Shown: positions 8,048-42,307 of the stretch, piece by piece
Position numbering within the stretch: position 1 is the stretch's first letter
Layout of the letters: each line of letters starts with the position of its first letter
Source: Candidatus Kaiserbacteria bacterium
GTDB lineage: Bacteria; Patescibacteriota; Minisyncoccia; Phycocordibacterales; UBA2100
Length of the DNA: 64,000 nucleotides
Direction of reading: 5' to 3'
Assembly (NCBI GenBank): GCA_028286865.1
Contig: JAQBQU010000007.1
Location: 5,888-69,887 of the forward strand
The notes under the pieces: model-generated
What the model was told of the DNA's origin: nothing
The model's database searches: none
Seen by the model: only the letters and a program-made list of their open reading frames with translations
Translations under genes and position numbers: made by a program

Positions 8048-9361
8048 CTAAGAAATTATTGAAACAAGGTCGACTATCGCGACCCGGCGCTGCTCCCCTG
8101 TATCGCGGTCCCGCACGGTCACCGTATCGAGAAGCTCCGGGTTCTCACCCAGCGTATCGAAGTCGATGGTGATGCAGGAAGGAGTGCCGATCTCATCCTG
8201 ACGGCGGTAGCGCTTGCCGATGTTACCGTTGTCGTCCCACATGATCTGCGGCACCTGCTTCTTGAGCATGGAATATACCTCGCGCGCCTTAGCGACGAGC
8301 TCGGGCTTATTCTTGAGAAGAGGAAATACAGCGGCCTTGATGGGTGCCACCGCCTTATTGAACTTAAGATAGGTGCGAGTTTCTCCACCAAGCTCATCTT
8401 CGGTATACACGGAGGCAAGAATCGCAAGAATGGTGCGGTCGACTCCGAAGGACGGTTCGATCACGTGCGGCACAAACCGTTTCCCTCCCCCCTCTACCGA
8501 ATCGTCCAAGAATGAGAGATCTGCGCCCGATGCGCCAGCGTGAGCAGAAAGATCGAAATCGGTTCGGTATGCGAGTCCGTAGAGTTCTTTGTGGCCGAAC
8601 GGGAATTCAAATTCGAAATCGATCGTGCGCTTTGAGTAATGTGCGCGATCGCCGTCGGCTACTTCCAGCTCCGTCGTCTTTGACGCGTCGATGCCGACGG
8701 CAGCAAGCCATCGATGCACTTCGTTGCGCCAATCCTCGAACGCTTCCTCCCAATTGCCTGGACGGACAAAGTATTCGATCTCCATCTGCTCGAATTCACG
8801 CGAACGGAACACGAAATCCCGCGGTGCAATTTCGTTGCGGAATGCTTTACCGATCTGTGCAATACCAAACGGCAGTTTCGGGTGGAATGAGTCGACGACA
8901 TTCTTGAAATTCACGAAAATGCCTCCGGCAGTTTCCGGCCGAAGATACGAAACCGATTCGGCATCTTCAGTAGCACCGATCTGCGTCTTAAACATCATAT
9001 TGAACTGGCGGACCTCACCAAATGAACCGCCGCATTCGGGGCATTTCTCTCCCACTTGATCGGCGCGGAAACGGCGCTTACACTTTTTGCACTCTACGAG
9101 CGGGTCCGAAAACCCGCTTACATGGCCAGATGCTTCCCAGGCTTTCGGGTTCATCAAAATAGCAGCGTCGAGGCCGCACATATCATCGCGTTCCTGCACG
9201 AACATCCTCCACCACAATTGCTTAACGTTATTTTTAAGTTCAACGCCGAGTGGTCCGTAGTCCCACGTACCCGCGAGGCCGCCGTAGATCTCGGAGCCCT
9301 GGTAGACGAAGCCTCTGCGCTTGCAGAGAGAGATGATCTTTTCCATGCTTGAGTCCGACAT
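8048..9361 (-). CDS. glyQS: Glycyl-tRNA synthetase (class II, dimeric type)
   Basis: CKRRGFVYQGSEIYGGLAGTWDYGPLG, FRNEIAPR, anticodon-binding C-terminus. Start at ATG 9361. Confidence 0.95.
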   Translation of the reverse strand: MSDSSMEKIISLCKRRGFVYQGSEIYGGLAGTWDYGPLGVELKNNVKQLWWRMFVQERDDMCGLDAAILMNPKAWEASGHVSGFSDPLVECKKCKRRFRADQVGEKCPECGGSFGEVRQFNMMFKTQIGATEDAESVSYLRPETAGGIFVNFKNVVDSFHPKLPFGIAQIGKAFRNEIAPRDFVFRSREFEQMEIEYFVRPGNWEEAFEDWRNEVHRWLAAVGIDASKTTELEVADGDRAHYSKRTIDFEFEFPFGHKELYGLAYRTDFDLSAHAGASGADLSFLDDSVEGGGKRFVPHVIEPSFGVDRTILAILASVYTEDELGGETRTYLKFNKAVAPIKAAVFPLLKNKPELVAKAREVYSMLKKQVPQIMWDDNGNIGKRYRRQDEIGTPSCITIDFDTLGENPELLDTVTVRDRDTGEQRRVAIVDLVSIIS

Positions 9362-9456
9362 GAGCCGAAGTTTACCCCGCAAGATTGAACGCGTCGAGTT
9401 GAATGCGAACAAGTAAGGGATATCTTGTGGGGTGTATCACGCAGGCCTTGTGGCCT

Positions 9457-11523
9457 CTACCGTGCGGCCGGAACGACCGTCGCCTTGTCCGACGTGAAGC
9501 CCGGGTCGGTGCCCACGAGCGCATCGGAGGAGGTCTTGGAGACCTGGGAAAGGTTGGTGTTCACTTCGGGGGTGGTCGTCTTTTTGATGACCTTTCCGGT
9601 CGCCGCGTCGGTACCGGTAAGCGTTATGTTCTTGACCAGGCTCGGCTGCTCGCCGATCTGGCTCGTAGACGGGGTGAATCCGATAGAGATCGCCATCTGG
9701 CGCGGAGCAAGACCGTTGGTCCCGACACCGGGGGCGATGTCACCCACGTTCCAGGTGAAGGTACCGTCGGCCTGATTGAATATGAGACTCTCCGTCGAAG
9801 GAGCGTGTGACCCGATCCAGCGCACATACGGCGGAAGCGTTGCGGTGACCTTCGCTCCGGTGAGCGCGTTGGTGGTGTTGGTGATCGTAAAGACGAGCGC
9901 ATACGTGGTCTCGGTACCCGCAGTCGGAGGAAGCGGTCCTGTGGAGACGAACGGATTGGCATAATAGAGCGCCTGCGCATTGAGTTCGAGATCGGTCGCA
10001 AGTTTGAGGCGCTGCTGCGCGACCGATTGAAGATTCTGCGGCACTCCCGTGTCCGAGAGGCGCTTGCCTGCAGCATTCACACTAATATCAAGATGCGGAT
10101 TCGAAACATTCTTCAGGTCCGCCGAAGACGGCACCTTGAAGGTGAACGATACGGTGCCTTTAGCTCCCGGCGCGAGTGTTTTCAAGACACCATTAGTGGT
10201 CGTTTTGTCCCATAAGACCGTATTGTCGGTCGACCGATAGAAACCGTCGGCAGTCCCGACCGTCGAGCCGTCGATCTGAAGGCCCGAGAGGCGCGCCACG
10301 ATGATGGCGTCGTTTATTTCGGTGGCCAGATGATTTGTATATTCGACCGAGATCGAGACCGTATCCCCCGGCGAAATGACGGAACTCGTCCCGAGCGAGG
10401 CCACCGCGGCGGCACTGTTGGGACCACCGTCAAAGCCGGATTGACCCGGTGTCGTGGTCGAAGTCGTATTCTTGTTCACCGAGATAGTGAGTCCCAAGAA
10501 CGGCTGCGAGATCGCAAGCGGATAGGAATTATTCGAAAGCGGCGTATCGATCGCGAGCGCGGTGCTCACGGCGCGGGTCCCTGTCGTGATGTGGAATACA
10601 CGACTGTCCCCCGGTTCACCGGAAAGTATGCCGCGTACCGCGATCTCTTTGTGCTGCCCCGGCGAGAGATCCCCCACGCTCCACAATCCGGTGGCGATCG
10701 GTGCCGGATCAGACGATTTGAATGTGAAGCCGAAGGGATAGTCGATGTGCACGAGCATGTCCTTGATCGGGGCCGATGCATTGGAGCCGACGTCGACAGT
10801 GAAAAACATCTCTTGGCCCGAAACGGTCTCGGTATTGCCGTCGACCGCGACCGTGACCGGAGAAGAGCCGAACGCGACATCATAATCGGAATCCGCCAGG
10901 AAGACCGCGTTGGATCCGGTGATGTGATATTCAAGCTCGACTTTCACCGTGGCATGAGTTCCCTGGGCCCCCGCGAAGACCGCCGAGATCGTTCCTTGTC
11001 GTGTGCCGCCGGGCTCGATCGTACCGAGCGGAATGCGTTGCGACGGAAAATCGGTCTTGAAGTCAGAGGGTGATCGGGTACCCGGCGGGTACGTAATGAC
11101 GAGTTCCGCGAGCTCGAGTGCCACGCTGTTGTGATTGGTCACGACCAGCTGAAGCTTGGTCGCTTCCCCGCCGGCAATTTCCGACGGACCCGAAACGGCA
11201 ATATCGATGTTCGACGCTGAGGCGTGAGAGCTCCCTGCGCCGAAGAGGAAGTAGTATGCGAAAAAGAGAAGTGCGCAGACGAAGAATGTGACCGCGGCGG
11301 CAAGGAACCACCAGAGCAGTTTGCGCGTATACCCGATCATGCGCGGCGCGACCATCATACCCGATGCTTCCGGCTCGGGTTGCGCCCAATCCTCGCCGAC
11401 CGCCTGTCGCGTGAGGTCGAGCGCATGCCGCGGCTTCTCGTGCAGCTTGTCGGAGAGCGAGCGCGAGTACATTGCGCGGCGCAGGCGTTCTATTTTCTCC
11501 TTCTCATGATCCGAAGGGTCCAT
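9457..11523 (-). CDS. Membrane-anchored hypothetical protein with repeated beta-sandwich (CARDB/DUF11-like) modules
   Basis: 688 aa. Charged N-terminus, one TM helix (LLWWFLAAAVTFFVCALLFFAYYFLF), then repetitive Ser/Thr/Gly-rich beta-type sequence. Confidence 0.6.
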   Translation of the reverse strand: MDPSDHEKEKIERLRRAMYSRSLSDKLHEKPRHALDLTRQAVGEDWAQPEPEASGMMVAPRMIGYTRKLLWWFLAAAVTFFVCALLFFAYYFLFGAGSSHASASNIDIAVSGPSEIAGGEATKLQLVVTNHNSVALELAELVITYPPGTRSPSDFKTDFPSQRIPLGTIEPGGTRQGTISAVFAGAQGTHATVKVELEYHITGSNAVFLADSDYDVAFGSSPVTVAVDGNTETVSGQEMFFTVDVGSNASAPIKDMLVHIDYPFGFTFKSSDPAPIATGLWSVGDLSPGQHKEIAVRGILSGEPGDSRVFHITTGTRAVSTALAIDTPLSNNSYPLAISQPFLGLTISVNKNTTSTTTPGQSGFDGGPNSAAAVASLGTSSVISPGDTVSISVEYTNHLATEINDAIIVARLSGLQIDGSTVGTADGFYRSTDNTVLWDKTTTNGVLKTLAPGAKGTVSFTFKVPSSADLKNVSNPHLDISVNAAGKRLSDTGVPQNLQSVAQQRLKLATDLELNAQALYYANPFVSTGPLPPTAGTETTYALVFTITNTTNALTGAKVTATLPPYVRWIGSHAPSTESLIFNQADGTFTWNVGDIAPGVGTNGLAPRQMAISIGFTPSTSQIGEQPSLVKNITLTGTDAATGKVIKKTTTPEVNTNLSQVSKTSSDALVGTDPGFTSDKATVVPAAR

Positions 11524-11547
11524 TCACGCAATATTACCACGCAGTGA

Positions 11548-13338
11548 CTACTCCGCGTCGCGATCTTCGTCTCGTTCGAACAAAAGCTCATCAGGGAGGC
11601 GGAAAAGCCCTTCATCGTTCTTCTTTTGCTCCATGAAGTGCGCAATGAAGCCGACCGAGCGCGGAATTATGAAGAGCGCATTGAAAAATTCCGTATCCAC
11701 AAGCTCGCGCAATGCCGCCGTATCCATCTCCTCCTTCTCAGCAAGAATATCGAGTAAGACCGCCGCCATAACGCCGTCGACATTGAGGATGAGGTTACCG
11801 TTCTTGCCCGTCGTCACCCCTTCGATGGCGCGAGCGAAATCGTAATGAGGGTGTGCACTGAGCAGTTTCGTGAATTCAGCAAGGGCGGCCACGCGTGGAT
11901 CGGGGATACCGACCCGATATTTGCGATGCCCGATCCCGGCGAGGAGCTTCCCTTCTTTCGTCTTGTTCTCGACGAATTCCTTTGCCGATACTTTGGAGGC
12001 GGCCCCTTCGTACCAGGCACGGGCCGCTTCGTTGACCGCGCCGCCAAATCGCGGACCGATCGTAAGAAGCCCTGCGGCAAGCGACGATACCATGTCCTTT
12101 CCGGCTCGCGCCGTGATCATCGTATTGACCGCGCCCGAGACGTGCCCGCCATGATCCATGAGCAGTTCGAAGATATTCTCGACGAATGCGGCAGTGACGT
12201 CGCTCACGTCGCGACCGATGAGTGCCTTGAGGGTCGCGGCCGCAAAGCCGTTCTGTTCCTGCGGCACGAGTGCGCCGTTTTTGACGAACTCGGGGACCGC
12301 ATCGAGGTCTACGATGTGCCGGGTCGAAAGTATACTCGATGCGCGTTGCATATAGACGTTTATATCCGACACTGTATCACCCCGAGGACTCTCCGGAAGC
12401 CCGCGCATTGCGGCAAGGAACTGCGGGAATGTCTCGGGAGCGATGGCTCCGGCAGATGCCAGTGCCTCGCGCTTTTCGCGCGCGCTTTCGCCCAGGTGTG
12501 CAACGAGCGCCTTCGCGTGCCCGAATTGCATATGTTCATCGAACGCTTCATCGATGACGCCCGCGATATAGCAGAGGATCGGCTTGGTGAGTTTTCCTTG
12601 TTTCAAAAGCTCAACGATCTCGTATTCGTCCACCCCGCCGAGTTCACCGAAATAGACTATTCCCTCTGTATTCGCATCGTTCTGCGCCATGAGGAGCACG
12701 TCGGAGAGTGACGTCACCGGGAAGCGGTCGCCGCCGATGCAGAGCGAAAATGAGACCCGCTTTCCGGCACCTGCGACCGCCGTGATGAGCTCATTGGTCA
12801 TGCCGCCGGAAGTCGAAACTACCGCGATATTCCCCGGCGTTGTAAGTTTTCCCTGCACGAGCTGCGCGGCGCCGATCCCGCCGATGGCGCCCAACTTCAT
12901 ATGACCGGGCACCAAAAGCCCCACTCCGGAAGGTCCGGCGATCACATATTTTTGTCCGTGCGTTTTAACGAGTTCGGTGGCATGGATCTCGGGGATATTC
13001 TCCGCAAAAAGGTGTCCGCCGAGCGCCTCGGGGAATCGCTGAAAGAATACAACGGTCGATTCGTACACGCGGCGCCCCGACTGCATATTGAGCATCCATT
13101 TGACGCGCGATGTATCTTTTTGCGGCACATCGGCGACACTTCGATAGCATGGAATGAGTATTTCTTTCGGGCCGAAGAAGAATTTTTGCGCTTTTCGCGT
13201 TGAAGCAATGATGCACACGATAGATGCCGGCTTTCCCGCGAGATGATCGAAATCGAGTATCGATTGCACGATACCGGGATGATTCCCGATCACAAGAATT
13301 CCTGTTTCTCCATTTCTGATGCGTTCGAGTGTTGTCAT
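11548..13338 (-). CDS. aclA: ATP-citrate lyase, alpha (large) subunit
   Basis: 596 aa. CoA-ligase domain (STSGGMTNE, GGDRFP), catalytic His loop QFGHAKA. C-terminal citrate-synthase-like domain collinear with ACLY (TARAGKDMVSSLAAGLLTIGPRFGG, GIGHRKYR, LILNVDG). Confidence 0.9.
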   Translation of the reverse strand: MTTLERIRNGETGILVIGNHPGIVQSILDFDHLAGKPASIVCIIASTRKAQKFFFGPKEILIPCYRSVADVPQKDTSRVKWMLNMQSGRRVYESTVVFFQRFPEALGGHLFAENIPEIHATELVKTHGQKYVIAGPSGVGLLVPGHMKLGAIGGIGAAQLVQGKLTTPGNIAVVSTSGGMTNELITAVAGAGKRVSFSLCIGGDRFPVTSLSDVLLMAQNDANTEGIVYFGELGGVDEYEIVELLKQGKLTKPILCYIAGVIDEAFDEHMQFGHAKALVAHLGESAREKREALASAGAIAPETFPQFLAAMRGLPESPRGDTVSDINVYMQRASSILSTRHIVDLDAVPEFVKNGALVPQEQNGFAAATLKALIGRDVSDVTAAFVENIFELLMDHGGHVSGAVNTMITARAGKDMVSSLAAGLLTIGPRFGGAVNEAARAWYEGAASKVSAKEFVENKTKEGKLLAGIGHRKYRVGIPDPRVAALAEFTKLLSAHPHYDFARAIEGVTTGKNGNLILNVDGVMAAVLLDILAEKEEMDTAALRELVDTEFFNALFIIPRSVGFIAHFMEQKKNDEGLFRLPDELLFERDEDRDAE

Positions 13339-14486
13339 ACATTGATATACGCGATGGCCTCTTCGACGGCGGTCGTGATCACAGCGTCTGATCCGTGGAC
13401 CGAGCCGAGCAGTTGCTCTTTCTCTAGGAACGCTTGCATGAGAGTCAGGCCCTGCGCTTCGTTGGGCCCGCCGCGGCGTACGAATACTTTTACCGAGGCG
13501 CTGCGCAGCGCATCCGCAGATTCCTGTAGAGCATCAATGATGCCCAGGAATGTTTTCTTCACGTCAGTGAAGTTCGCGACACCCCCGGCGATCACTAGCG
13601 CTTTCTTTTGAGACTTTGATGCCTGCATGAGCGAAATGATCTCCTTTGCATACAAATACGTCTCTTCCCGTGTCGGCCCTCCGCTGTATTCGCCATAATT
13701 CGCCATGCGCTTCCCCGCTCCTTCGAGCTCGGCCTCGTCCGCAATGACGATAGAACCACCTCCGCCGGAGAGCAGAAAGAAAAGTGCTCCATTGGGGTCA
13801 ATGACGGAGAGCTTGAGCGAGGCCGGCGTCGTCGCAGCGAGTGCCTCGACCCGCTCTTCGGCAGCATGTTTTGCCTTTGCTTTAATGAAGTCGTCTTCGC
13901 CCCATGAATGCACAAAGAATGAGCCGGCACTATCCACCAAGACCGCAGCATCAAGTAGGTGCACTTCACCGTCCTTGATGACGAGCGGATTTATCTCCAG
14001 AAATGCGAGAAAATTATTGTTGAAAGAATCGACGACAGTGCGGAGGAACGTTTCTGGCAGCCCCGACTGTGCGGCGATAGAAGTGATATCAGCATCACTT
14101 TTGATCACATACGTCTGCACTGCTTCGGGATGCGCTTCGATATCAACACCACCGTCTTTGGTGTGCAGCATCCGTATCCCCTCGCGCACGCGCTCAAGCG
14201 CAAAATACTGCTCTTCGCTTGCATCATGTACCAAGAAAGGTTCGAGTAGGAACTGTGAGAACCCCCGCTCCTCCCACGATCTGATGGCTACAAGCATTTC
14301 ATCGGCGGGCTTGTTGACCGACACCAACCCCTGCTTAAATCGTTTTTTTACTCCCTGATCTACCTTCGCGACCCATTCGCCTTTTGGTATCTGCATACCA
14401 CTGCCCGATCGAAGCTGAATACCTTTATACGCATCACCGACGAGGATCTTCTTCGCGCGATATTCGCTGATCTTTACGCGAGACAT
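13335..14486 (-). CDS. aclB: ATP-citrate lyase, beta (small, ATP-grasp) subunit
   Basis: 383 aa; collinear with the ACLY N-terminal part (LLEPFLVH, LEINPLV, ANYGEYSGGPTREETYLYAKEII, GGVANFTDVKKTF, VFVRRGGPN). ATGA overlap with aclA. Confidence 0.9.
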   Translation of the reverse strand: MSRVKISEYRAKKILVGDAYKGIQLRSGSGMQIPKGEWVAKVDQGVKKRFKQGLVSVNKPADEMLVAIRSWEERGFSQFLLEPFLVHDASEEQYFALERVREGIRMLHTKDGGVDIEAHPEAVQTYVIKSDADITSIAAQSGLPETFLRTVVDSFNNNFLAFLEINPLVIKDGEVHLLDAAVLVDSAGSFFVHSWGEDDFIKAKAKHAAEERVEALAATTPASLKLSVIDPNGALFFLLSGGGGSIVIADEAELEGAGKRMANYGEYSGGPTREETYLYAKEIISLMQASKSQKKALVIAGGVANFTDVKKTFLGIIDALQESADALRSASVKVFVRRGGPNEAQGLTLMQAFLEKEQLLGSVHGSDAVITTAVEEAIAYINV

Positions 14487-14490
14487 ACAT

Positions 14491-14925
14491 TTAGAATGCT
14501 AACTTGAAGACCTCGGTTTCCCGCTTCTTAAAGCCGAGGCGCATGTAAAGCTTCTGTGCCGCAACGCGGTCGGGCCCGCTTGTCAGATAGAGCTGTGTTG
14601 CCCCTGCATTTTTTGCCTCCTGTATCAGCACTTCCATTATCTTCTGACCGAGACCCTGGCCGCGATACGCTTCATCAACAACAACATCTTCAACAAAGCC
14701 TGTTTTTTTACCAAACTTTTGCGCGAGGTAGGCGGTCGCCATTCCGACGATCTTGCCCTCATCTCGCACAGCGATAAAGATAATGTTCTTGTCCGAAATG
14801 ATCGCACTGAGATGCTGCTCTGTTCCAAGTGGCTCACTCGGATCGCGACGCAACTGAAGAAGCAGGTTGTTTATTTCCTTGAGCGCATTATCCGATGATG
14901 ATGTCATTCGTTCGACGGCGATCAT
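14491..14925 (-). CDS. GNAT family N-acetyltransferase
   Basis: 144 aa; VVVDEAYRGQGLGQKIM acetyl-CoA pocket motif. Ends 4 nt upstream of the aclB start. Confidence 0.85.
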   Translation of the reverse strand: MIAVERMTSSSDNALKEINNLLLQLRRDPSEPLGTEQHLSAIISDKNIIFIAVRDEGKIVGMATAYLAQKFGKKTGFVEDVVVDEAYRGQGLGQKIMEVLIQEAKNAGATQLYLTSGPDRVAAQKLYMRLGFKKRETEVFKLAF

Positions 14926-14940
14926 ACGAAGAGCCTAGCG

Positions 14941-15510
14941 TTAGAGGTGGGTTTCGGCAAGGGCGTTATTGATCGACCGAAGCAGCTCCGGCTTAAGCTC
15001 TTCGGCCTCTGTAAGGTGCACGGCCTGATATGCGGTGTGTGAAAAAAGCGTTGATCTGAGCGCTTCGGCGGATATGTAGCCAAGTGAGTATAGGATACGT
15101 GCCACACACATGATCTCGATCGTCGGATACGCGTCCGGCGTCGTGATGAGTGCTTCGTGCGCTTCCATGAGTGTCTGGAAAATGTATTCGTTATTCTCAT
15201 CCACCCCGACGAATCGCATCGCAAGCTCTGCGATGCGGGCGAATGTCGCGAGCACCTGCGGAGAGCCCTGGGCGGTAAGGATCGCGGTCGCTCCGGCGGC
15301 ACGCCAGCCGTTCTTGCCGCGCACCAGCGACACATGGGCATACGTGTAATTCTGGAGCGCGTAGCGCATCTTCGACTTTTCGCTGCGGATCGCAGAAGCG
15401 CGTGCGCGAACGAGCCCAAAGTCGCGGGTAAAGAGCGTGATGGTACGGTCAGACTCGCCCGTTTCGCGGCTTCCGAGTACGAGTGCCTCTGTGTGATACT
15501 TTTGGTACAC
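14941..15510 (-). CDS. recO: DNA repair protein RecO
   Basis: 189 aa; N-terminal OB-fold pattern TEALVLGSRETGESDRTITLFTRDFG. Confidence 0.8.
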   Translation of the reverse strand: MYQKYHTEALVLGSRETGESDRTITLFTRDFGLVRARASAIRSEKSKMRYALQNYTYAHVSLVRGKNGWRAAGATAILTAQGSPQVLATFARIAELAMRFVGVDENNEYIFQTLMEAHEALITTPDAYPTIEIMCVARILYSLGYISAEALRSTLFSHTAYQAVHLTEAEELKPELLRSINNALAETHL

Positions 15511-15514
15511 GTTT

Positions 15515-18382
15515 TTATTTATCGAGCTCGATGGATCGTTTTTCTCCTACAACCCACTTCGTGATTGTTGTATTGGTCGCCTTCTGAAGTTCTTGTGTGC
15601 GCGTTTTAAGAATGTCGATTTCAGCCTGTGGAGCACTTAATATCGACGACACATGTGCCCCCGGCTTTAGGTCCTGTTCTTTACGGAATGCTTGGATTTC
15701 CCGCACCACATCACGCAGCATCCCATCTTCTCTGAGCGCCTCCGTAAGGGTGACATCAAGCACAACGCCTTCCCCATGCGGCACCACGATCTTCACGTTC
15801 ACCTCGTCGGCAATGATCGAGCGGAGCGCTTCAGAGAGCCGCGAGGTGCCCGGGATGGAAAGTGAGGCCAGTGGCTGGCGCACCTTGATCCCGGCCTTGT
15901 CGCGCGCTTCGAGCGCTTGCGTCACGATATCGCGGGCGGATTCCATCATTTCGAGCACTGATCTGCCGTCATCTCCTCCGAAGAGCTTTGCCCACATGCC
16001 GGCCTTTCTTGATACTTCCGGCCACATCGCGAGGTGCACACTTTCCTCGTCCTCTCCTTCCTTTACTGCTTGGAAGAGGTATTCGGCGAAGAACGGTGCC
16101 GATGGCGCCATGACGAGTGCGAGGCGATGGAGCACGAACCGTATCGTCGCGAGTGCGGCTTTCTTGTCGACCCCGTCTTCCTTGAAGCGATCACGCGAAC
16201 GTCGCAGATACCATACCGACAGATCATCGATGAATCCCGATATCGGACGCGTTGCGCTATCGAGCTGGTACTTTTCAAATGCATCAGTCACTTCTTTGAT
16301 GACGCTATCGAGGCGTGCCACGATCCACACATCGAGCACGTGCTCGCTTTGCCAGTCGCGCGGCGTCGAGTCTTCGTAGAGCTTGTAGAACGAGAGCACA
16401 TTGTTGAGTCGTCCGAGATTCTTCTTTGCCATTTCATCCACTCCCCGCTCCGAAAAACTCAGATTCTCAGCCTGCATGACCGGAGAGGAAAGCAGATACA
16501 TACGCAGCGCATCCGCCCCGTGCCGCTCGACGACCTCCATCGGGTCGGGATAGTTCTGGAGCCGCTTCGACATTTTCTTCCCATCTTCGGCAAGCACGAT
16601 GCCGTTGACGATCACATTCTGGAACGCATTTTTGTTGAACAAAGCTCCCCCGAGCACATGCAGGTAGTAGAACCATGCACGCGTCTGGTCCTGGCCCTCG
16701 GCGATGAACTGGGCCGGGAACGCCGCGTCGAACTTCTCCTTGTTCTCAAACGGATAATGCTGCGAGCCGTACGGCATCGAGCCCGAATCGAACCAGGTGT
16801 CGAGCACGTCAGGAACGCGCTTCATCGTGCCGCCGCATGCGCACGGGACAGTCACGAGATCGATCACGTGCTTGTGCAGGTCGTCGATCTTCTTGCCGCT
16901 TGCCTCTTCGAGTTCCGATGCCGAGCCGAATACCTTCTTCTCTTTGCATTTCTCACACACCCAGATCGGGATCACGCTCGCCCAGAATCGCTGGCGCGAT
17001 ATTCCCCAATCGCGCGCTCCCTCGAGCCACTTGCCGAATCGTCCTTCTTTGATGTGTTCGGGCGACCAATTGATAGATTTCGCGTGCGAAAGCAGATCCG
17101 TTTTCAGTTTAGTTACAGAAACAAACCACGACGAGGTCGCGTAATTCAAAAGCGGCGTATCGCAGCGCCAGCAGTGCGGATATGAGTGCGTGATGTTCTC
17201 CTTGGAAAAGAAAGTGCTGTGATCCTGCAGATATTTCAATACCGCGATGTCGGTACCGAGGCGCACCTTATCGTCATCGGATTTCGGCTTGGCTTCGAGG
17301 CCCGCAAAGTCGGTGACCTCCGGCTTCATCGTGCCGTCCATATTCACGTGCTGTACAAAAGGCAGATTCACCTGTTTCAAAAGCTCCCAGTCATCTGCAC
17401 CGAATGCAGGGGCCTCGTGTGCGATACCCGTACCGCTCTCGGCAGTGACGAAATCCGCGGCATACACCTTCCATCCATTCTCGCGATTCTTGAGCGTTGT
17501 GTCGTTGATGTAGTAATCGAACGGCGGCGTGTACTTCTTTCCGACCAGCTCTGATCCTTTCTGAGTTGCGACGATCGTAAACGGCTGCCCATCGAACACG
17601 TGTTCGACACGATCCTTTGCCACGATATACCGAACCCCTTCCCGTTCAGCGGTCACATATTCAACATCCGCGCCTACTGCAATCGCGACATTACCTGGAA
17701 GAGTCCACGGAGTGGTGGTCCAAGCCAACAGATACGTTCCCGGCTCATCGACGAGTTCAAACTTCACCGTGACCGAAATATCTTTTACATCCTTATACCC
17801 TTCCGATACTTCGGTCTGCGAAAGCGTGGTCTCGCAGCGCGGGCAGATGTGCATCGAGCGGTAGTCTTCGTACACGAGGCCCTTGTCGTAGATCTGCTTG
17901 AACACCCACCACACACTCTCCATGAATGGCTTGTCCATCGTGCGGTACGCGTTCTTCATGTCCGCCCAGCGGCCGATACGCGGAATGATCTTCTCCCACT
18001 CGTGCGCATATGTCAGCACCTGCTCGCGGCAGCGCTCGTTGAACTTCGCGATGCCGTATTCTTTGATGTCTTTCTTGTGCTTGAAGCCGAGTTCTTTCTC
18101 GACGATGTTCTCTATCGGGAGGCCGTGGCAGTCCCAACCCCACACCCGTGGTACGCGGTATCCGCGCATCGTCCAATAGCGCGGAACGACGTCTTTGATG
18201 ACAGAGGCGACGATGTGCCCGTAGTGCGGGAGTCCGGTCGCGAACGGCGGGCCGTCATAGAACACATAGTCGCCTTTTGGAGCATCGCGATCCACTGATT
18301 TATTGAAAATATCGTTCTCGTTCCAGAACGCGAGCATCGCCTCTTCGCGCTTATTTGTCTCACTTTTTGGCGCTTCACTCAT
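15515..18382 (-). CDS. ileS: Isoleucyl-tRNA synthetase (type 2-like)
   Basis: 955 aa; PPFATGLPHYGH (HIGH), KMSKRLQN, editing-domain insert. Confidence 0.97.
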   Translation of the reverse strand: MSEAPKSETNKREEAMLAFWNENDIFNKSVDRDAPKGDYVFYDGPPFATGLPHYGHIVASVIKDVVPRYWTMRGYRVPRVWGWDCHGLPIENIVEKELGFKHKKDIKEYGIAKFNERCREQVLTYAHEWEKIIPRIGRWADMKNAYRTMDKPFMESVWWVFKQIYDKGLVYEDYRSMHICPRCETTLSQTEVSEGYKDVKDISVTVKFELVDEPGTYLLAWTTTPWTLPGNVAIAVGADVEYVTAEREGVRYIVAKDRVEHVFDGQPFTIVATQKGSELVGKKYTPPFDYYINDTTLKNRENGWKVYAADFVTAESGTGIAHEAPAFGADDWELLKQVNLPFVQHVNMDGTMKPEVTDFAGLEAKPKSDDDKVRLGTDIAVLKYLQDHSTFFSKENITHSYPHCWRCDTPLLNYATSSWFVSVTKLKTDLLSHAKSINWSPEHIKEGRFGKWLEGARDWGISRQRFWASVIPIWVCEKCKEKKVFGSASELEEASGKKIDDLHKHVIDLVTVPCACGGTMKRVPDVLDTWFDSGSMPYGSQHYPFENKEKFDAAFPAQFIAEGQDQTRAWFYYLHVLGGALFNKNAFQNVIVNGIVLAEDGKKMSKRLQNYPDPMEVVERHGADALRMYLLSSPVMQAENLSFSERGVDEMAKKNLGRLNNVLSFYKLYEDSTPRDWQSEHVLDVWIVARLDSVIKEVTDAFEKYQLDSATRPISGFIDDLSVWYLRRSRDRFKEDGVDKKAALATIRFVLHRLALVMAPSAPFFAEYLFQAVKEGEDEESVHLAMWPEVSRKAGMWAKLFGGDDGRSVLEMMESARDIVTQALEARDKAGIKVRQPLASLSIPGTSRLSEALRSIIADEVNVKIVVPHGEGVVLDVTLTEALREDGMLRDVVREIQAFRKEQDLKPGAHVSSILSAPQAEIDILKTRTQELQKATNTTITKWVVGEKRSIELDK

Positions 18383-18448
18383 TCCCGATATGGTAACAAA
18401 AAACCGAGACCGACGCGACGAATGCCGCTTCGGTCGAACCGGAAAAAA

Positions 18449-20122
18449 TTACATCTTTTTGGGTGCCGGAATGCCCAAAAGCCAGAGTCCGTTCTTGAGT
18501 GTCTGGCGGACAATATCTACAATTGCGACTTTATGAGCTGCGGCCGGAGTGCCATCAAGGATCTGCTCCTGTGCGTACCAGCTATTGAAGGCAGCGGCGA
18601 GATTGATGAGATAGGTAGCCACCAAATGCGGCTCAAGGTCTTCCTGCGCACGGAGCACGATGTCTTGGAATCGAGCGGTCAGCCGCGCGAGATCACTTAC
18701 TGCGGCAGTGGTATCAATACTCACCACCACGTTCGAGGCGACAGCTTTCTCAATGATGGCGCACGTGCGGGCATGCGTGTATTGCAGGTAAGGACCCGAA
18801 TCCCCCTCGAGTGCGAGTGCCCGTTCTCGGTCGAAGATAATATCCTTTCCTGTTCCGCCTTTGAGGATCTGAAATTTCACCGCCGCAACAGCCACATCAC
18901 GCGCGAGCTGTTCGATATCATCCGCACGACTCAGTGCCGCGCGCTCTTTTGCAGCGATCACGAGGTCATTGAGGAGTGACTCTCCGGTTACCACGTTGCC
19001 GGTGCGGGACGACATCTTCCCCTCCGGAAGACGCATCATGCCGTGTGAGACATGTTTTGTTTTCGCTGCAAGTTCGGGGAAGATCTCCCCCATCGCCGCG
19101 AGCAGCACTTTGAAATACTCATTCACCTCGTTGGCGGTGATGATGATCGATGTGTCGTATGCGTATTTCTCGTGCTTGAGCTTTGAAAGTCCGAGCTCTT
19201 TCGCTTCATACGTCGGTAACCCTTCGGAATTGAGGAAAACGCGGGTATGCAGGCCGTGCTTCTCTCCTTCGTACACCACTGCTCCGTCGCTCTTTTTAAA
19301 GATGCCGTCGTCGATGTGCATCTCTACGATCTGTTTGCCGACAGGCCCCGTCTCGCTCTCGAAGAAATAGAAATCGAACTTCGTACCAAGCAACGCATAC
19401 AATTCTTCGAAGTGATCAAGGGACGCTTTTCTTCCCTCGTCATAGAGCTCGTTTATCTTTGTATCGCTTCGGTCGTACACTTTTTTATTAATATCCGTGA
19501 TCTCTTTCTTCGCCGGAGAGTCATCGATGTCCGCCGCTGCCCCTGCCGCATATGCGCGACCGAGCGCTTTCACATCTCCCGCCGATCCGCCGGCCTGCAT
19601 GAGTCCCCAGATAGCACGAGCAACATGACGCCCCACATCGCCCTGATAATTGGCACGTCGCACTTCCGCCCCGGAAAACGTCACGAGCCGCGACAATGAT
19701 TCCCCTATCGAGTTCGTTACGAGATGGCCGATATGGAACTCTTTGAACGGATTGGGATCGGTATATTCAACAACGATCTTCTTTCCAATGAGTGAAGGAT
19801 TTCCTCCCCACATATCGGGCTCGCTTCGTCCGCTTTCAAGATTCGCCCAAATGATCTTCGGGTCGACGGAGAAATTGATGAATCCGGGACCCGCGATATC
19901 GATCGAGGTCACGCCGGCGATCTCCCCCATCATTTCAACAAGCTTCTCCGCGAGCACTCGCGGCGCCATATTGAATTCTTTGGCATATGCGAGCGCCGCG
20001 CTCGTCGCATAGTCGCCATGCGAGAGGTCGCCGGTGAGATCGAGCGACACCTTGGGAGTTTCAACGCCCAAGCGCGTAAGTGCGGCAGAAATACTTTTCT
20101 CTATCGTTGCCCTGACGTTCAT
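18449..20122 (-). CDS. argS: Arginyl-tRNA synthetase
   Basis: DPNPFKEFHIGH (HIGH), C-terminal DALR anticodon-binding region. Start at ATG 20122. Confidence 0.95.
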   Translation of the reverse strand: MNVRATIEKSISAALTRLGVETPKVSLDLTGDLSHGDYATSAALAYAKEFNMAPRVLAEKLVEMMGEIAGVTSIDIAGPGFINFSVDPKIIWANLESGRSEPDMWGGNPSLIGKKIVVEYTDPNPFKEFHIGHLVTNSIGESLSRLVTFSGAEVRRANYQGDVGRHVARAIWGLMQAGGSAGDVKALGRAYAAGAAADIDDSPAKKEITDINKKVYDRSDTKINELYDEGRKASLDHFEELYALLGTKFDFYFFESETGPVGKQIVEMHIDDGIFKKSDGAVVYEGEKHGLHTRVFLNSEGLPTYEAKELGLSKLKHEKYAYDTSIIITANEVNEYFKVLLAAMGEIFPELAAKTKHVSHGMMRLPEGKMSSRTGNVVTGESLLNDLVIAAKERAALSRADDIEQLARDVAVAAVKFQILKGGTGKDIIFDRERALALEGDSGPYLQYTHARTCAIIEKAVASNVVVSIDTTAAVSDLARLTARFQDIVLRAQEDLEPHLVATYLINLAAAFNSWYAQEQILDGTPAAAHKVAIVDIVRQTLKNGLWLLGIPAPKKM

Positions 20123-20144
20123 GCGGGCATTGTACCTTGTGAGG

Positions 20145-20183
20145 CACAAAAGAAAACGACCCCTTGCGGGGCCGTTTTCTTTT
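20145..20183 (-). terminator. Intrinsic terminator after rplK
   Basis: Hairpin aaaacggcccc-gcaa-ggggtcgtttt, then a T-run on the minus strand. Confidence 0.7.
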
Positions 20184-20189
20184 GAAGAA

Positions 20190-20618
20190 TTATTTAAGGT
20201 CGGTCGTGATGCCCATTGAGCGAGCAGTTCCGGCGATGATCTTCTTTGCGTGTTCGAGGTCGTTGGCGTTGAGGTCCTCCATTTTCTCCTTGGCGATGTC
20301 CTCTACCTGCTGATTCGAGAGCTTCGCTACCTTATCAGCATGAGGACGCTGAGAACCCTTTTCGATGCCTGCAGCTTTGAGGATGAGGCGAGAAGCCGGC
20401 GGCTTCTTGACGATAAAGGTGAATGATCGGTCCTTGTAGACGGTCATGAGGACCGGTACGACGGAGCCCATCATCGGACGCGTGAGGGTGTTGAACTGGT
20501 TGACGAAATCGCCGATGTTCACGCCGGCCGGACCGAGCGCAGTACCCACCGGTGGAGCTGGGGTAGCCTTACCGGCCTCGATCTGGAGCTTAATGATTTT
20601 TGTTATTTCTTTTGCCAT
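20190..20618 (-). CDS. rplK: 50S ribosomal protein L11
   Basis: [25 protein letters not shown] is the L11 signature. Confidence 0.97.
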
Positions 20619-27814: not shown

Positions 27815-27872
27815 GCGGTCATGATAGCAAAAGGTCCGACAATTGTCGGACCTTTTGCGCTTCTGTCTTTTG

Positions 27873-27954
27873 TGCCCAGGGGGGGACTCGAACCCCCATG
27901 CCTTTCGGCGCTACCACCTCAAGGTAGTAAGTCTACCAATTTCTCCACCTGGGC
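27873..27954 (-). tRNA. tRNA-Leu (GAG)
   Basis: Manual fold: acceptor GCCCAGG/CCTGGGC, anticodon stem-loop CTACC-TTGAGGT-GGTAG, long variable arm. Confidence 0.9.
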
Positions 27955-39504: not shown

Positions 39505-41880
39505 TTACTGAGTGATGGTGAACACATCGGGAGTGTACGCCTGCCCGTTATATACCGGACTCGACAGACTGCCCGTATACAGATCCGCTTCAATGCCATA
39601 CGTCCTGCCCGGAACGAGGTCGGTACCGCATACAGTGTCGGAAGTCACATCGCAGGTGTCGGTAGCGCCGGGCAATGTCCATGCATACGAGCCGCTTGCG
39701 GCCAGTTCAGCACTGATCAATCCGGTGACAGAGCCCAGGTGTACGTCATAAAGCCAGAGTGACATTTTTGAGCCGCTCGGAGTGCCGGTGGCGGTCCACT
39801 GGATCGTGTTGACTGCCCCACGCGCGATCGACTTACCGTCAGACGATGAGGTCACGGTCAGGCCCCCGCCGGTGCCGGCCCCCGCACCGCCGACAGTGAT
39901 CGTCGTCGTCGCATCACGAGTCCCGCCCCCGAGCGTGACGCAGTGGAGCAGGATGTCGGTCGTTTGTGTGACCGGCGAGGTCGTCGCCATACCGTTGACG
40001 CTCTTGTTCGCGGCATTCGCTGCCGTGAAGTCCGCTTGCTGCGGGCTCGATACCACGCAGGAGCTCATGCCGCTCGTTACCCAGCCCACGGTCGAGAGTG
40101 TACTGGTCGCAACTACTTTCGGATTGGCAAGAAGCACGATCGAGGGTTTCGATATCTGTACCGAGCATGATGCTTGGCCGGTGAGGTTCTGATTCGTGCA
40201 CGTGAGGCCGAACGTCGCGGTATTCGAACCGGCCGGAGGTGCCGCGATCACGGTCGTCGTCGAGCCGGAGGTGGCACCGAGTGTTGCAAATCCGCTGCCC
40301 GAGCTTCCGGTCGCATTCGTGCATCCGTACGAAAGTGAGACCGACATGCCCACATCAGCCACCTGCGGCTGGCACGAGAGCTGTGCGGTCGGAGTGACCG
40401 CGGTCGTTCCATCCGGTGCGCACTGCCATCCGGTGGTACACGCAGCGCCATTGGATTGATTCGTAGTGACGGGCTTGATCGTATAGCCGGCACCGCATCC
40501 CGTCGCAGGCTGCGGAGGTGCGGCGGCGCAGGTGTTGGACGTCGCACCCGGAGTACACGCCACCGGAGCGATAGGAGGCGTCGGCTGTGAGACCGGAACA
40601 TAGCCGTTCACTTGGTACTGATACTGCATCTGCTGCTGTTGATACTGGTACTGCTGCATCTGGTATTGATACTGCTGCAACTGCGACTGATATTGCTGCT
40701 GCTGCGCGGCGTAGGCGCTCGGATCCGAAGGGCACGCGGCGCCGGTTGCAGGAGTTCCCGCCCCCGTGAGGCCCTTGGCTAGCCCGCCAAGAAACCCTTG
40801 GAGCGCTTTTCCAATGTCACCAAGTCCGCCCCCGGTATTTGGTTTTTCCGGAGTTTGAGGTGCCGGAGTTCCGCCGCTCGGTGGCGTGAAGGTGGATTTC
40901 GGTATCTCTTTCCCGTTGGGATCTACGCAGGTTCCGCTCTTAGCGCACACGGATGCGACACCCGGCTGATCTCCTCCCGGATCAATGCCGCCTGGGTTTT
41001 GTGAAATGTCCTGTTTAATATTCGCGGCAAAATCTGTCTTTTGTTTTTCGAGCGCAGCAAGTTGTTGTTGTTGTTTTTCAAGATCCTGCTGAGCCGCCCG
41101 CGTTTCATTGATGCGACTGGAATCGTCCGATGCTTGCAGTTCGTTCAACTTCGCTTGAGCAGAGTCCACCTGAGCCTTCTGCGCTGCTATTTGCGGATCA
41201 ATCTGGCTGGCAAACGCCTCATTAAGAGAAGCCTGGGTTTGAGCATCAGCCGCGCCGAGACTCACAGTGCCCTTTAGCAGGTCTGGACTGAGCGTTGATA
41301 CGGTCTGAGATTCAGTGGCCCACGTCTGAATGCTTTGGCCTCCAGTTTTATTTTGTACCGGACCGCACTTCCCTGCCGAATCACAGAACGTGGTCTTACA
41401 AACTCCCTCCTCTGAGTTGGTATCTCCCGGCGTAGACTGAATGTCACCCTGACCCTTGGCATTCATTGTCACTTTTGTCACCTCTCCGACACATTTATAA
41501 GATTCAGGGGCTGTGCGCGGATCAGTATTAGGACTTTTAGCTTTCACTGCATTGCCTAATGCCTCATCGTAGATCGCTGCGATACATTTATTATTTTCTG
41601 TCACGTTCGCCGTGAATGGCTGATTGAGTGCCGGCGGCTGACCATATGCAGCGGCAGCATCTTTCTTTGCTTTTGTACATTGAGCGGTCACCTCATTTGC
41701 ACTGGATCCGGCAGCTGCAGGGCGTGCGGTTGGTAGTGGTGTTGATGCTTGAGCAGATTGCGAACTCGGATTCGTATTCGGCAGAAGGATCTGGGTGAAA
41801 ACGAGAAGGATACTGAGAATGCCCACTAATGTGAGTGCGGCCACTATAGAAGAGCCGCGACTGAGTGAGCGCTTGAACAT
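39505..41880 (-). CDS. Large secreted/anchored protein: coiled-coil, Gln/Tyr-rich tract, C-terminal Cys-bracketed Ig-like modules
   Basis: 791 aa from ATG 41880 (MFKRSLSRGSSIVAALTLVGILSILLV signal anchor). The track ORF's 61-codon N-terminal extension reaches 42063 (14 nt short of tRNA-Arg) and precedes the signal anchor, so it is unlikely to be real. Confidence 0.7.
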   Translation of the reverse strand: MFKRSLSRGSSIVAALTLVGILSILLVFTQILLPNTNPSSQSAQASTPLPTARPAAAGSSANEVTAQCTKAKKDAAAAYGQPPALNQPFTANVTENNKCIAAIYDEALGNAVKAKSPNTDPRTAPESYKCVGEVTKVTMNAKGQGDIQSTPGDTNSEEGVCKTTFCDSAGKCGPVQNKTGGQSIQTWATESQTVSTLSPDLLKGTVSLGAADAQTQASLNEAFASQIDPQIAAQKAQVDSAQAKLNELQASDDSSRINETRAAQQDLEKQQQQLAALEKQKTDFAANIKQDISQNPGGIDPGGDQPGVASVCAKSGTCVDPNGKEIPKSTFTPPSGGTPAPQTPEKPNTGGGLGDIGKALQGFLGGLAKGLTGAGTPATGAACPSDPSAYAAQQQQYQSQLQQYQYQMQQYQYQQQQMQYQYQVNGYVPVSQPTPPIAPVACTPGATSNTCAAAPPQPATGCGAGYTIKPVTTNQSNGAACTTGWQCAPDGTTAVTPTAQLSCQPQVADVGMSVSLSYGCTNATGSSGSGFATLGATSGSTTTVIAAPPAGSNTATFGLTCTNQNLTGQASCSVQISKPSIVLLANPKVVATSTLSTVGWVTSGMSSCVVSSPQQADFTAANAANKSVNGMATTSPVTQTTDILLHCVTLGGGTRDATTTITVGGAGAGTGGGLTVTSSSDGKSIARGAVNTIQWTATGTPSGSKMSLWLYDVHLGSVTGLISAELAASGSYAWTLPGATDTCDVTSDTVCGTDLVPGRTYGIEADLYTGSLSSPVYNGQAYTPDVFTITQ

Positions 41881-42076
41881 GCCTGAATCATGCGCCCCAA
41901 TAGAGACATGCGCAATGCATAAATGGCGCCACATGTGGAAAAAAGCGAAATAAATGCTACATTTCTGGCAACGGTCCGATTGCCATGCTTTCGAGAACGT
42001 GAACGCTCCCGTAAGCAAAGCTTTCGGAAACGTCATTCGGGTGGAATGAAAGTAAACTTTCATCCCTCCCTCAATA

Positions 42077-42151
42077 GCTCCCGTCGTTCAACGGATAGGA
42101 TGCATCCTTGCGGAGGATGTGATGTAGGTTCGATTCCTGCCGGGAGCACCA
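42077..42151 (+). tRNA. tRNA-Arg (GCG), CCA encoded
   Basis: Manual fold: acceptor GCTCCCG/CGGGAGC, perfect anticodon stem CATCC/GGATG, loop TTGCGGA, T-loop GGTTCGATTCC. Confidence 0.85.
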
Positions 42152-42155
42152 AAGG

Positions 42156-42190
42156 CACAAACACCCACCCTTCGGTGGGTTTTGTGTTTT
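42156..42190 (+). terminator. Intrinsic terminator after tRNA-Arg(GCG)
   Basis: cacaaa(c)acccacc-cttc-ggtgggttttgtg followed by TTTT. Confidence 0.75.
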
Positions 42191-42197
42191 GGTGCTG

Positions 42198-42281: not shown

Positions 42282-42307
42282 GCAAAAGCTCCCCCGTATT
42301 CGTGACC

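Follow-up and report, generated by a model that had tools for sequence, protein, structure and literature searches.

ATP-citrate lyase (ACL) genes outside a reductive TCA (rTCA) cycle have already been published for Patescibacteria (Sieber 2019, PMC6851277; PMC12577380), and PMC9671151, citing Probst 2017, likewise places aclAB in Patescibacteria MAGs. The gene is therefore not new, and its presence without rTCA is less surprising than a sequence-only reading of this DNA had assumed. The two-subunit ACL of a Gracilibacterium is, like the one described here, an orphan heteromeric enzyme in a reduced CPR genome lacking the rTCA cycle, and offers a published precedent for citrate scavenging via ACL; it differs in its GHAGA loop and archaeal-like sequence, and its report describes neither a GNAT or amino-sugar linkage nor a Lys variant (PMC6851277). 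Among solved structures, those closest to the subunits described here are of human ACLY and of Methanothrix (Methanosaeta) ACLY-A/B (PDB 6HXH, 6HXI; Verschueren et al. 2019). They share with our pair the catalytic and binding residues and the order of ATP-grasp, citrate-binding, CoA-binding, CoA-ligase and citryl-CoA lyase domains. Identity to them is, however, only ~30-39%; our AclB is ~40 residues shorter, with deletions in ATP-grasp loops, AclA has a shorter linker before the lyase module and reads GHAKA for GHAGA and GIGHRKYR for GIGHRVKS, and human ACLY consists of one fused polypeptide rather than two subunits. The rTCA-type AclBA of Chlorobium limicola (PDB 6HXJ) resembles our locus in its two subunits, adjacent aclB/aclA and chemistry, but works within a complete rTCA cycle and is far more distant in sequence (190/119 bits versus 336/180 for human ACLY). 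In Hydrogenobacter thermophilus, citryl-CoA synthetase (CCS) and citryl-CoA lyase (CCL) (PDB 6HXQ, 6HXP) carry out the same two half-reactions with homologous domains; there they are separate enzymes, whereas our AclA contains the lyase as a fused module, and CCS/CCL score only 44-65 bits.

The locus studied here lies in a 64-kb stretch (the window) of a contig from Candidatus Kaiserbacteria (Patescibacteria/CPR), a tiny-genome soil bacterium. It comprises three open reading frames, all on the minus strand, whose positions had been read correctly from the letters alone:

14491..14925, minus strand: GNAT-family N-acetyltransferase, 144 aa, first of the GNAT-aclB-aclA trio (ORF, Pfam)
13335..14486, minus strand: aclB, ACL small (beta) subunit with ATP-grasp and citrate-binding domains, 383 aa (Pfam, PDB, Foldseek)
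11548..13338, minus strand: aclA, ACL large (alpha) subunit with CoA-binding/CoA-ligase part and C-terminal citryl-CoA lyase (citrate-synthase-like) module, 596 aa (Pfam, PDB)
12505..12528, minus strand: phospho-histidine loop QFGHAKAL, with His274 at 12517-12519 and Lys276 at 12511-12513 (translation)
11551..12270, minus strand: citryl-CoA lyase module of AclA, residues ~357-596 (Pfam Citrate_synt 357-580)
13335..13338, minus strand: ATGA overlap of aclB stop and aclA start, consistent with translational coupling (sequence read)

The sequence blocks on which that reading had relied, ANYGEYSGGPTREETY, VFVRRGGPN, QFGHAKA, TARAGKDMVSSLAAGLLTIGPRFGG and GIGHRKYR, all occur in the translations, and the sequence likewise shows the ATGA overlap and the GNAT stop 4 nt before the aclB ATG.

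Family assignment and catalytic residues

Both subunits carry ACL-specific Pfam domains: Ligase_CoA, Succ_CoA_lig and a C-terminal Citrate_synt domain in AclA, and Citrate_bind (6e-50) and Citrate_synth_N (85 bits) in AclB (by accession, 85.4 bits for PF24948, cut-off 83, and 169.7 bits for PF16114). Against solved structures AclA scores 336 bits with human ACLY (E 4e-99), 282 with M. concilii and 190 with C. limicola, versus ~69 bits for SCS-alpha and ~60-65 for CCS/CCL. AclB scores 180 bits with human ACLY and 119 with C. limicola ACL, its E-values being 7e-52 for human ACLY and 1e-48 for Methanosaeta ACLY-A versus 3e-10 for CCS, and its AF2 model (pLDDT 87) finds ACLY N-terminal regions as top Foldseek matches (E ~1e-35). 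An identity as SCS or as citryl-CoA synthetase/lyase was rejected, since ACLs reach 190-336 bits (AclA) and 119-180 bits (AclB) and SCS and CCS/CCL stay at or below 69 and 65 bits. The NCBIfam models for SCS and citryl-CoA lyase score the pair far under their cut-offs, and in a distance (NJ) tree it groups with ACL rather than with either alternative. Homology of both subunits to human ACLY is, by these scores, far above chance.

We take E599 and H760 to be defining residues of human ACLY, and H900, H975, R986, D1026, R1065 and R1085 to be those of its lyase. The corresponding AclA columns are all invariant: Glu113 (equivalent of E599) and the phospho-histidine His274, although the motif around the latter deviates to GHAKA clade-wide, and, in the lyase module, which aligns with human ACLY 825-1029, His396, His471, Arg482, Asp521, Arg560 and Arg580. 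In AclB, alignment to human ACLY places K41, E82-P83-F84, N166 and D179 at what are presumably the ATP/Mg residues (human K58, E108-P109-F110, N203, D216), invariant in 30 homologues, and G269, N305, T307 and R338, again all invariant, at the presumed citrate site (human G309, N346, T348, R379). The ATP, citrate, phospho-His and citryl-CoA-lyase residues that we regard as defining are thus all kept, and the lyase is apparently intact. The earlier identification as a two-subunit ACL holds, with no catalytic residue lost: AclB and AclA very probably form a heteromeric ATP-citrate lyase (EC 2.3.3.8), and we infer that it is active.

The GHAKA loop and its clade

The departure of the His loop from the usual GHAGA had been read correctly and is no error; it is not, however, peculiar to one genome but a clade-wide trait. 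All 120 closest homologues (66-100% identity) carry the Lys, 119 as FGHAKA and one as FGHAKS, and Lys is found in 100% of the patescibacterial clade versus Gly in 100% of 20 other ACLs compared. The GHAKA clade contains Patescibacteria only and is monophyletic in 100/100 NJ bootstraps; sequences with GHAGA, those of Gracilibacteria type included, branch outside it. GHAKA-type ACL occurs in at least 59 GTDB species, its loci lying amid housekeeping genes on contigs that reach 1.16 Mb. Strong purifying selection on the ACL is visible across the 120 homologues and the loci of these species. Our literature search turned up no previous description of the Lys loop variant.

The substitution raises the question of a changed function, in which Gly-to-Lys and GIGHRKYR would mark a different substrate, such as another hydroxy-acid/acyl-CoA pair, or a non-catalytic or regulatory protein. 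Lys276 replaces an otherwise nearly universal Gly in the catalytic loop, and its fixation in the clade is accompanied by ~20 further clade-specific AclA positions, among them a change of E to F at residue 197 and KYR in place of VKS following the catalytic His471. Against such a change, no variation is seen in 4/4 AclB citrate-site residues or in 6/6 lyase-module residues that bind citrate/citryl-CoA or act in catalysis, and the ATP-grasp residues are intact. Moreover, P0125, a member nested within the clade, has regained Gly at 276 while keeping every other clade signature, so the Lys does not go hand in hand with a remodelled site. We therefore consider a changed function very unlikely. The natural Gly-to-Lys replacement beside the catalytic His offers a ready probe of how far the SCS/ACL superfamily tolerates side chains in its swinging phospho-His loop.

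Conserved neighbours and the adjacent acetyltransferase

The genes around the locus all run in one direction with little space between them, and an operon can therefore not be delimited from spacing alone; we found no promoter or terminator signals above chance at the locus, and its GC content is not atypical. The aclB and aclA genes are adjacent in 84/84 loci examined, and the GNAT-aclB-aclA order is kept in 23/27 loci of the window's sub-branch, down to ~47% AclA identity and with differing flanking genes, counts that are phylogenetically non-independent. The proposal of a self-contained unit thereby gains support. Over the wider set, a GNAT stands upstream of aclB in 24/58 patescibacterial loci. 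In other branches of the ACL, amino-sugar genes recur as neighbours: murB follows aclBA in nine loci, glmS in three (L046, L048, L060) and glmM-GNAT in two (L041, L055), this type-B GNAT lying directly after glmM, and one locus (L045) reads aclBA-tdh-kbl-glmM. Next to a sister ACL of GHAGA type (L087) the order is sugar aminotransferase/dehydrogenase, NeuD/PglB-like sugar acetyltransferase, aclBA and GDP-mannose dehydratase, with a non-homologous (LbH) sugar acetyltransferase occupying the position of the GNAT. No earlier report linking patescibacterial ACL to amino-sugar genes was found in the literature.

The GNAT itself (Pfam Acetyltransf_1, 1.3e-21; AF2 pLDDT 95, GNAT fold) is matched best in the PDB, in sequence as well as in fold, by three GlcN-6-P N-acetyltransferases (GNA1), those of T. 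brucei (3FB3), C. parvum (6YUG) and A. thaliana (3T90). At 24-28% identity, it shares with them the catalytic Tyr127, the E79-D80 beta-bulge and Thr115, and the match to C. parvum GNA1 (CpGNA1) runs over the whole length, the C-terminal TEVxxxxF included (PMC7587441). The margins are small, however, AAC(3)-Ia, Naa30 and uncharacterised GNATs scoring nearly equally, and the assignment to GNA1 is accordingly weak. Of the sugar-phosphate-binding residues of CpGNA1 (R73, R113, R141, T117, H81), the GNAT keeps the Thr as T115 and has K73 for R73, D80 for H81 and Q111 for R113, the R141 position being variable; two of the three Arg essential in C. parvum GNA1, Arg113 and Arg141, are thus not conserved (PMC7587441). 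Other invariant Arg of the GNAT, R88 and R120, might substitute for them.

Alternatively, the GNAT may be no metabolic sink at all, but either a RimI-like housekeeping acetyltransferase placed by chance or a regulator acetylating the ACL, for instance at Lys276, much as Pat/AcuA controls acetyl-CoA synthetase. Genes in CPR genomes lie close together, JGI calls the orthologues "RimI-like" and RimI is the best NCBIfam match, but at 51 bits versus a cut-off of 86; chance placement also fits poorly with an adjacency kept in 23 of 27 loci at such divergence while the flanks change. GNAT regulators encoded beside acetyl-CoA-forming enzymes are an established theme, and the clade-specific Lys lies two residues from the catalytic His; Lys276 is nonetheless present in 59/59 loci, only 24 of which have an adjacent GNAT. 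The glmM-linked GNATs and the unrelated sugar acetyltransferase of L087 speak for a sink as well. We regard a GNAT that is no sink as unlikely.

Direction of the reaction and proposed role

Pfam scans of ~55 further ORFs in the window identified housekeeping, envelope and pilus genes only (RecA, EF-P, TatD, Met/Gly/Ile/Arg-tRNA synthetases, NusG, PurD, a Mur ligase, RuvAB, PolA, PilB/PilM, glycosyltransferases, a sigma factor), in agreement with the earlier statement that the 64 kb hold no other TCA or rTCA gene. A citrate transporter, malate dehydrogenase or another oxaloacetate-using gene was found neither within the window nor among the recurrent neighbours. Elsewhere in the genome, GlmU and further sources of acetyl-CoA may occur. 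ACL is the classical marker of the rTCA cycle, and KEGG-based pipelines list it under "Arnon-Buchanan cycle" (PMC12577380 Table S6), which would make it the key enzyme of CO2 fixation in this organism. However, OGOR, fumarate reductase, PFOR, aconitase and IDH are absent from the 64 kb and from ~58 related neighbourhoods, eukaryotic and archaeal ACLY resemble the protein more closely than Chlorobium ACL does, and PMC9671151 describes aclAB-bearing Patescibacteria MAGs without other rTCA genes. The rTCA reading is close to refuted. Given the lack of TCA/rTCA genes nearby, we therefore read the ACL as an anabolic acetyl-CoA supply rather than as part of CO2 fixation.

The ACL reaction is close to equilibrium, and the sequence features fix no direction, so that the enzyme could also work in the opposite direction, as a citrate synthase that gains ATP (acetyl-CoA + oxaloacetate + ADP + Pi to citrate + CoA + ATP), providing substrate-level phosphorylation in a fermentative symbiont. 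Related ADP-forming acyl-CoA synthetases run in this way, and Moller and colleagues reportedly described the ATP-yielding reverse reaction in Desulfobacter postgatei in 1987. The sole hint from context is L045, where tdh-kbl, an acetyl-CoA producer, lies beside aclBA. CPR bacteria do depend on substrate-level phosphorylation (PMC6851277, discussion), but the conserved neighbours of the ACL are acetyl-CoA consumers (GNAT, LbH sugar acetyltransferase) and amino-sugar genes rather than producers of acetyl-CoA or oxaloacetate such as PFOR or PEP carboxylase, and the 64-kb window has no aconitase or IDH to use the citrate. The reverse reaction thus seems quite unlikely, and the acetyl-CoA-supplying direction probable.

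In the acetyl-CoA-supplying direction, ATP bound in the ATP-grasp domain of AclB would phosphorylate His274 of AclA, and the phospho-His loop would swing to the citrate/CoA site, yielding citryl-phosphate and then citryl-CoA, which the citrate-synthase-like C-terminal module of AclA would split into acetyl-CoA and oxaloacetate. Citrate would be taken from the host or the environment, giving an anabolic acetyl-CoA supply as in the eukaryotic cytosol, and the acetyl-CoA would pass to the adjacent acetyltransferase. The likeliest sink would be N-acetylation of amino sugars, from GlcN-phosphate to GlcNAc-phosphate and UDP-GlcNAc, for peptidoglycan and envelope precursors; we propose this sink tentatively, at somewhat less than even chances. 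Taken as a whole, a functional heteromeric ACL that cleaves scavenged citrate and provides acetyltransferases, the neighbouring GNAT among them, with acetyl-CoA, plausibly to build amino-sugar and cell-wall precursors, is the explanation we favour, with moderate confidence. Its most specific form appears doubtful, namely that an ancient, Lys-marked ACL lineage of the Patescibacteria's own feeds amino-sugar N-acetylation with acetyl-CoA from scavenged citrate, and that a GNA1-like GNAT, kin of the "Apicomplexa-specific" GNA1, makes the GlcNAc-phosphate. A rarer variant of this form would have the neighbouring GNAT acetylate Lys276 and thereby exert feedback control on the lyase.

Metagenomic aclAB matches are routinely scored as rTCA carbon fixation, and the GHAKA clade would give false calls of autotrophy. 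CPR/Patescibacteria make peptidoglycan without most of central metabolism, and the source of their acetyl-CoA is poorly understood. If our explanation is true, the linkage of a conserved ACL to acetyltransferase, glmS, glmM and murB genes would identify one concrete dependency, on host or environmental citrate, and would allow the connection between metabolites supplied by the host and the making of the cell wall to be tested. Were its most specific form also true, peptidoglycan and envelope synthesis in these symbionts would rely on host citrate through a eukaryote-like route from citrate via acetyl-CoA to GlcNAc.

Identity and setting of the citrate lyase pair

The sequence-only reading had placed a two-subunit ATP-citrate lyase (ACL) and an adjacent GNAT acetyltransferase in the window. 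The three ORFs occupy exactly the coordinates it had given:

11548-13338, minus strand, aclA, ORF of 596 aa
13335-14486, minus strand, aclB, ORF of 383 aa
14491-14925, minus strand, GNAT, ORF of 144 aa

All the peptide blocks quoted for them occur in the translations, and the sequence contains both the ATGA overlap of aclB with aclA and the 4-nt gap between the GNAT stop and aclB. The two ACL proteins are 100% identical to JWM46_213 and JWM46_214, annotated as "hypothetical proteins" on a 69.9-kb contig of a Candidatus Kaiserbacteria MAG.

In AclB, Pfam finds the two domains specific to ACL, Citrate_synth_N (PF24948) and Citrate_bind (PF16114); AclA combines Ligase_CoA/Succ_CoA_lig with a C-terminal citrate-synthase domain. 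NCBIfam has no ACL model, and the matches of the pair there (to succinyl-CoA synthetase, SCS; citryl-CoA lyase, CCL; and citrate synthase) are all sub-threshold. We weighed SCS and citryl-CoA synthetase (CCS) as alternative identities and rejected them, because ACL structures score far higher for both subunits. AclA reaches 336 bits with human ACLY, 282 with Methanosaeta ACLY-B and 190 with Chlorobium AclA, versus about 69 with SCS-alpha and 65/59 with Hydrogenobacter CCS/CCL; AclB scores best with the human protein (180 bits), followed by those of Methanosaeta (169) and Chlorobium (119) and by CCS (44). The first structural matches of the AclB AlphaFold model (pLDDT 87) are ACLY N-terminal halves, over the whole length and with E of about 1e-35. 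Loop deletions make AclB some 40 residues shorter than its human and archaeal counterparts but spare the N-terminus and the strands.

The residues that we take to define ACL, from the literature on ACLY, SCS and citrate synthase, were located in HMMER alignments using native human numbering (h). AclB retains K41 (hK58), E82-P83-F84 (hE108-P109-F110), N166 (hN203), D179 (hD216), G269 (hG309), N305 (hN346), T307 (hT348) and R338 (hR379), all invariant across 30 homologues. AclA retains E113 (hE599), H274 (hH760), H396 (hH900), H471 (hH975), D521 (hD1026), R482, R560 and R580, invariant in an alignment covering CPR, DPANN and Chlorobiaceae. With ACL ranking ahead of SCS and CCS and every catalytic residue kept, the two findings that would have spoken against the proposed identity, affiliation with those synthetases and loss of catalytic residues, are therefore both absent. 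The pair is thus a real ACL, intact as judged by all sequence criteria, and it belongs to a lineage specific to Patescibacteria.

Elsewhere the window encodes RecA, EF-P, four aminoacyl-tRNA synthetases, NusG, PurD, a Mur ligase, RuvAB and PolA, together with pilus genes, glycosyltransferases and seven tRNAs. One of these, tRNA-Leu(GAG) at 27872-27954, was called by ARAGORN and not reported by the Rfam tRNA model at its gathering threshold (7 versus 6 tRNAs). No other gene of the TCA or reductive TCA (rTCA) cycle was seen in the 64 kb, as had been noted earlier, and we rejected rTCA autotrophy on this ground. Recent horizontal transfer into this genome was likewise rejected, since the locus has the same GC content (0.57) as the window on average and the gene lies among syntenic housekeeping genes in relatives. 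Scanned for promoters and terminators, the region 9000-20500 showed no signal exceeding shuffled expectation. Downstream of aclA, a 688-aa ORF (9457-11523), which keeps its synteny with aclA in Kaiserbacteria relatives, has no features beyond weak DUF11/CLIPPER-like repeats; Pfam matches none of three large ORFs in series on the minus strand (39505-46355; 852, 725 and 602 aa).

A clade with lysine in the phosphohistidine loop

The loop around the AclA phosphohistidine, His274, reads GHAKA in place of the usual GHAGA. Lysine occupies position 276 in all 120 closest AclA homologues (FGHAKA in 119, FGHAKS in one), which are 66-100% identical and come from Kaiserbacteria, Paceibacterota and Parcubacteria. 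Among representatives of clusters at 50% identity, only seven carry it, one of them a Dojkabacteria protein; the other ACL-like representatives have GHAG[AS], with GHAAA (P0163) and GHAWA (P0181) as rare exceptions. These two belong with P0158, P0171, P0173 and P0179 to a set of divergent ACL-like proteins, several of them fusions of about 1000 aa, with unusual catalytic motifs: their His loop reads GHAWA or GHAAA, and in the lyase module GIGHR is replaced by GIGHLFH, GIGHLYN or GIGHALH.

Scanning one genome per GTDB species, which yielded more than 533 relatives, we found at least 59 Lys-bearing loci, labelled Paceibacterota, Saccharimonadales, Levybacteria, Magasanikbacteria or "Patescibacteria group", besides some evidently mislabelled MAGs. 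Relatives at 33-37% identity come from Asgard, Thermoplasmatota, DPANN, Chlamydiia and others. Thirteen contigs with patescibacterial-type ACL (L014, L017, L018, L021, L030, L034, L035, L040, L043, L044, L047, L055 and L056) bear titles such as "uncultured Gammaproteobacteria", "Gemmatimonadetes", "Dormiibacterota" or "Pseudomonadales", yet have CPR-like neighbours, and are probably mislabelled or mis-binned MAGs. On the 742-kb contig L001, the public AclB call (344 aa, start 8970) probably has a mis-called start, as the ORF at 8859-10004 gives 381 aa, like clade members.

Neighbour-joining recovered the Lys clade as monophyletic in all 100 bootstrap replicates; its commonest sister, a GHAGA group with a Saccharibacteria protein, appears in just 25%. 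The clade is also set apart at about 20 other positions, among them F197 versus Glu, K473-Y474-R475 versus V-K-S, Q159, A172, D221 and Y257 in AclA and V42, K47 and E251 in AclB. We considered whether Lys276 forms a compensating pair with AclB Glu251 or AclA Phe197, and rejected this for want of tight coupling: P0125, a nested clade member encoded at L085, has Gly276 and nevertheless keeps both partners and all other clade signatures. Lys276 is thus not obligatorily coupled to them. The glycine of P0125 is either a true Lys-to-Gly reversion, for which two nucleotide changes are needed, or the retained ancestral state. L085, a single 3.7-kb metagenome contig, is the sole source of a clade member with GHAGA and GIGHRKYS.

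Acetyltransferases and amino-sugar genes beside aclBA

aclB and aclA are adjacent at every locus examined. Because neighbourhood contexts are partly inherited across loci, counts of them are not independent. Immediately upstream of aclB stands a GNAT gene in 24 of the 58 patescibacterial loci (22 co-directional and at most 13 nt away), and in 23 of the 27 loci of the sub-branch that includes the window. Within this sub-branch the flanks vary (RecO...DUF11-GlyRS, UvrB...UvrA or ...PilB-PilC-PilM), and the GNAT comes in two subtypes, a short one of about 145 aa, to which the window's GNAT belongs, and a long one of about 200 aa (L007, 6257-6865). In the other sub-branch the upstream genes are unrelated (GreA, sortase, KhpB, Band 7, LexA), but downstream murB (NCBIfam equivalog) abuts aclA at four loci (L024, L034, L037 and L043) and lies within 1.6 kb at five more. 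The glmS gene is next to aclA in L046 and L048 and next but one downstream in L060, and L041 and L055 have glmM (equivalog) followed, with a 4-nt overlap, by the long GNAT. At L045 (5982-9323), three genes come after aclBA: one resembling Zn-dependent alcohol/threonine dehydrogenases, then kbl (encoding glycine C-acetyltransferase; NCBIfam equivalog, 561 bits), then one resembling glmM. With them, a second acetyl-CoA-linked module stands beside ACL. The sister GHAGA-type ACL P0136 (L087, 4040-10839) sits within a nucleotide-sugar/polysaccharide cluster rich in glycosyl- and methyltransferases, directly preceded by a fused DegT-type sugar aminotransferase and GFO/IDH/MocA protein (UDP-GlcNAc-3-dehydrogenase-like) and then a hexapeptide sugar acetyltransferase resembling NeuD/PglB/VioB, with GDP-mannose 4,6-dehydratase immediately after it. 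Even with inherited contexts, several amino-sugar and peptidoglycan-precursor genes and two non-homologous acetyltransferase families recur beside ACL.

The best PDB sequence matches of the window's GNAT are glucosamine-6-phosphate N-acetyltransferases (GNA1): that of C. parvum (CpGNA1, 6yug; full length, E 1e-9; checked through the residues listed in PMC7587441 and the Foldseek description), a T. brucei GNA1-like protein (3fb3) and A. thaliana GNA1 (3t90). A family-profile search ranked the uncharacterised 1z4e first, CpGNA1 second (2.6e-17) and 3fb3 fifth, and Foldseek with the AF2 model (pLDDT 95) placed 3fb3, 6yug and 3t90 on top, with AAC(3)-Ia close behind. Tyr127, Thr115 and the Glu-Asp motif are conserved, whereas the counterparts of CpGNA1 Arg113 and Arg141 are not. 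Given these two arginines, the rank of 1z4e and the close AAC(3)-Ia score, we treat GNA1 as a lead rather than a result. Neither GNAT subtype matched an NCBIfam model above cut-off, and a word-indexed homologue search returned 29 close relatives with uninformative names. The short patescibacterial family aligns end to end with CpGNA1, including the C-terminal TEVxxxxF (profile E 2.6e-17). GNA1 of this type has been reported as restricted to Apicomplexa (PMC7587441); the alignment therefore suggests that bacterial relatives of the family may exist.

Novelty and proposed function

Neither the gene family nor its odd host range is new. In a closed Gracilibacterium genome, Sieber et al. (2019) reported a two-subunit, archaeal-like ACL with GHAGA, called it "rarely detected in CPR" and suggested that citrate is scavenged from outside (PMC6851277). 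Patescibacteria MAGs with aclAB that lack the remaining rTCA genes are also on record (PMC9671151, which cites Probst et al. 2017). In groundwater, a 2025 study observed enrichment of aclAB in Saccharimonadia (3 of 11 MAGs) versus at most 3.5% in other CPR classes (PMC12577380). Among eukaryotic sequences, ACLA/B group with DPANN and ACLY groups with Thermoplasmatota (PMC11976288). Our literature search found no mention of the Lys (GHAKA) variant or of a linkage to GNAT or amino-sugar genes, and the Lys-loop clade and its neighbourhood pattern, both of which we infer from sequence, appear to be undescribed so far. In these bacteria, ACL would most likely serve in citrate cleavage, providing the neighbouring acetyltransferases with acetyl-CoA, and the sink for this acetyl-CoA would plausibly be the N-acetylation of amino sugars.
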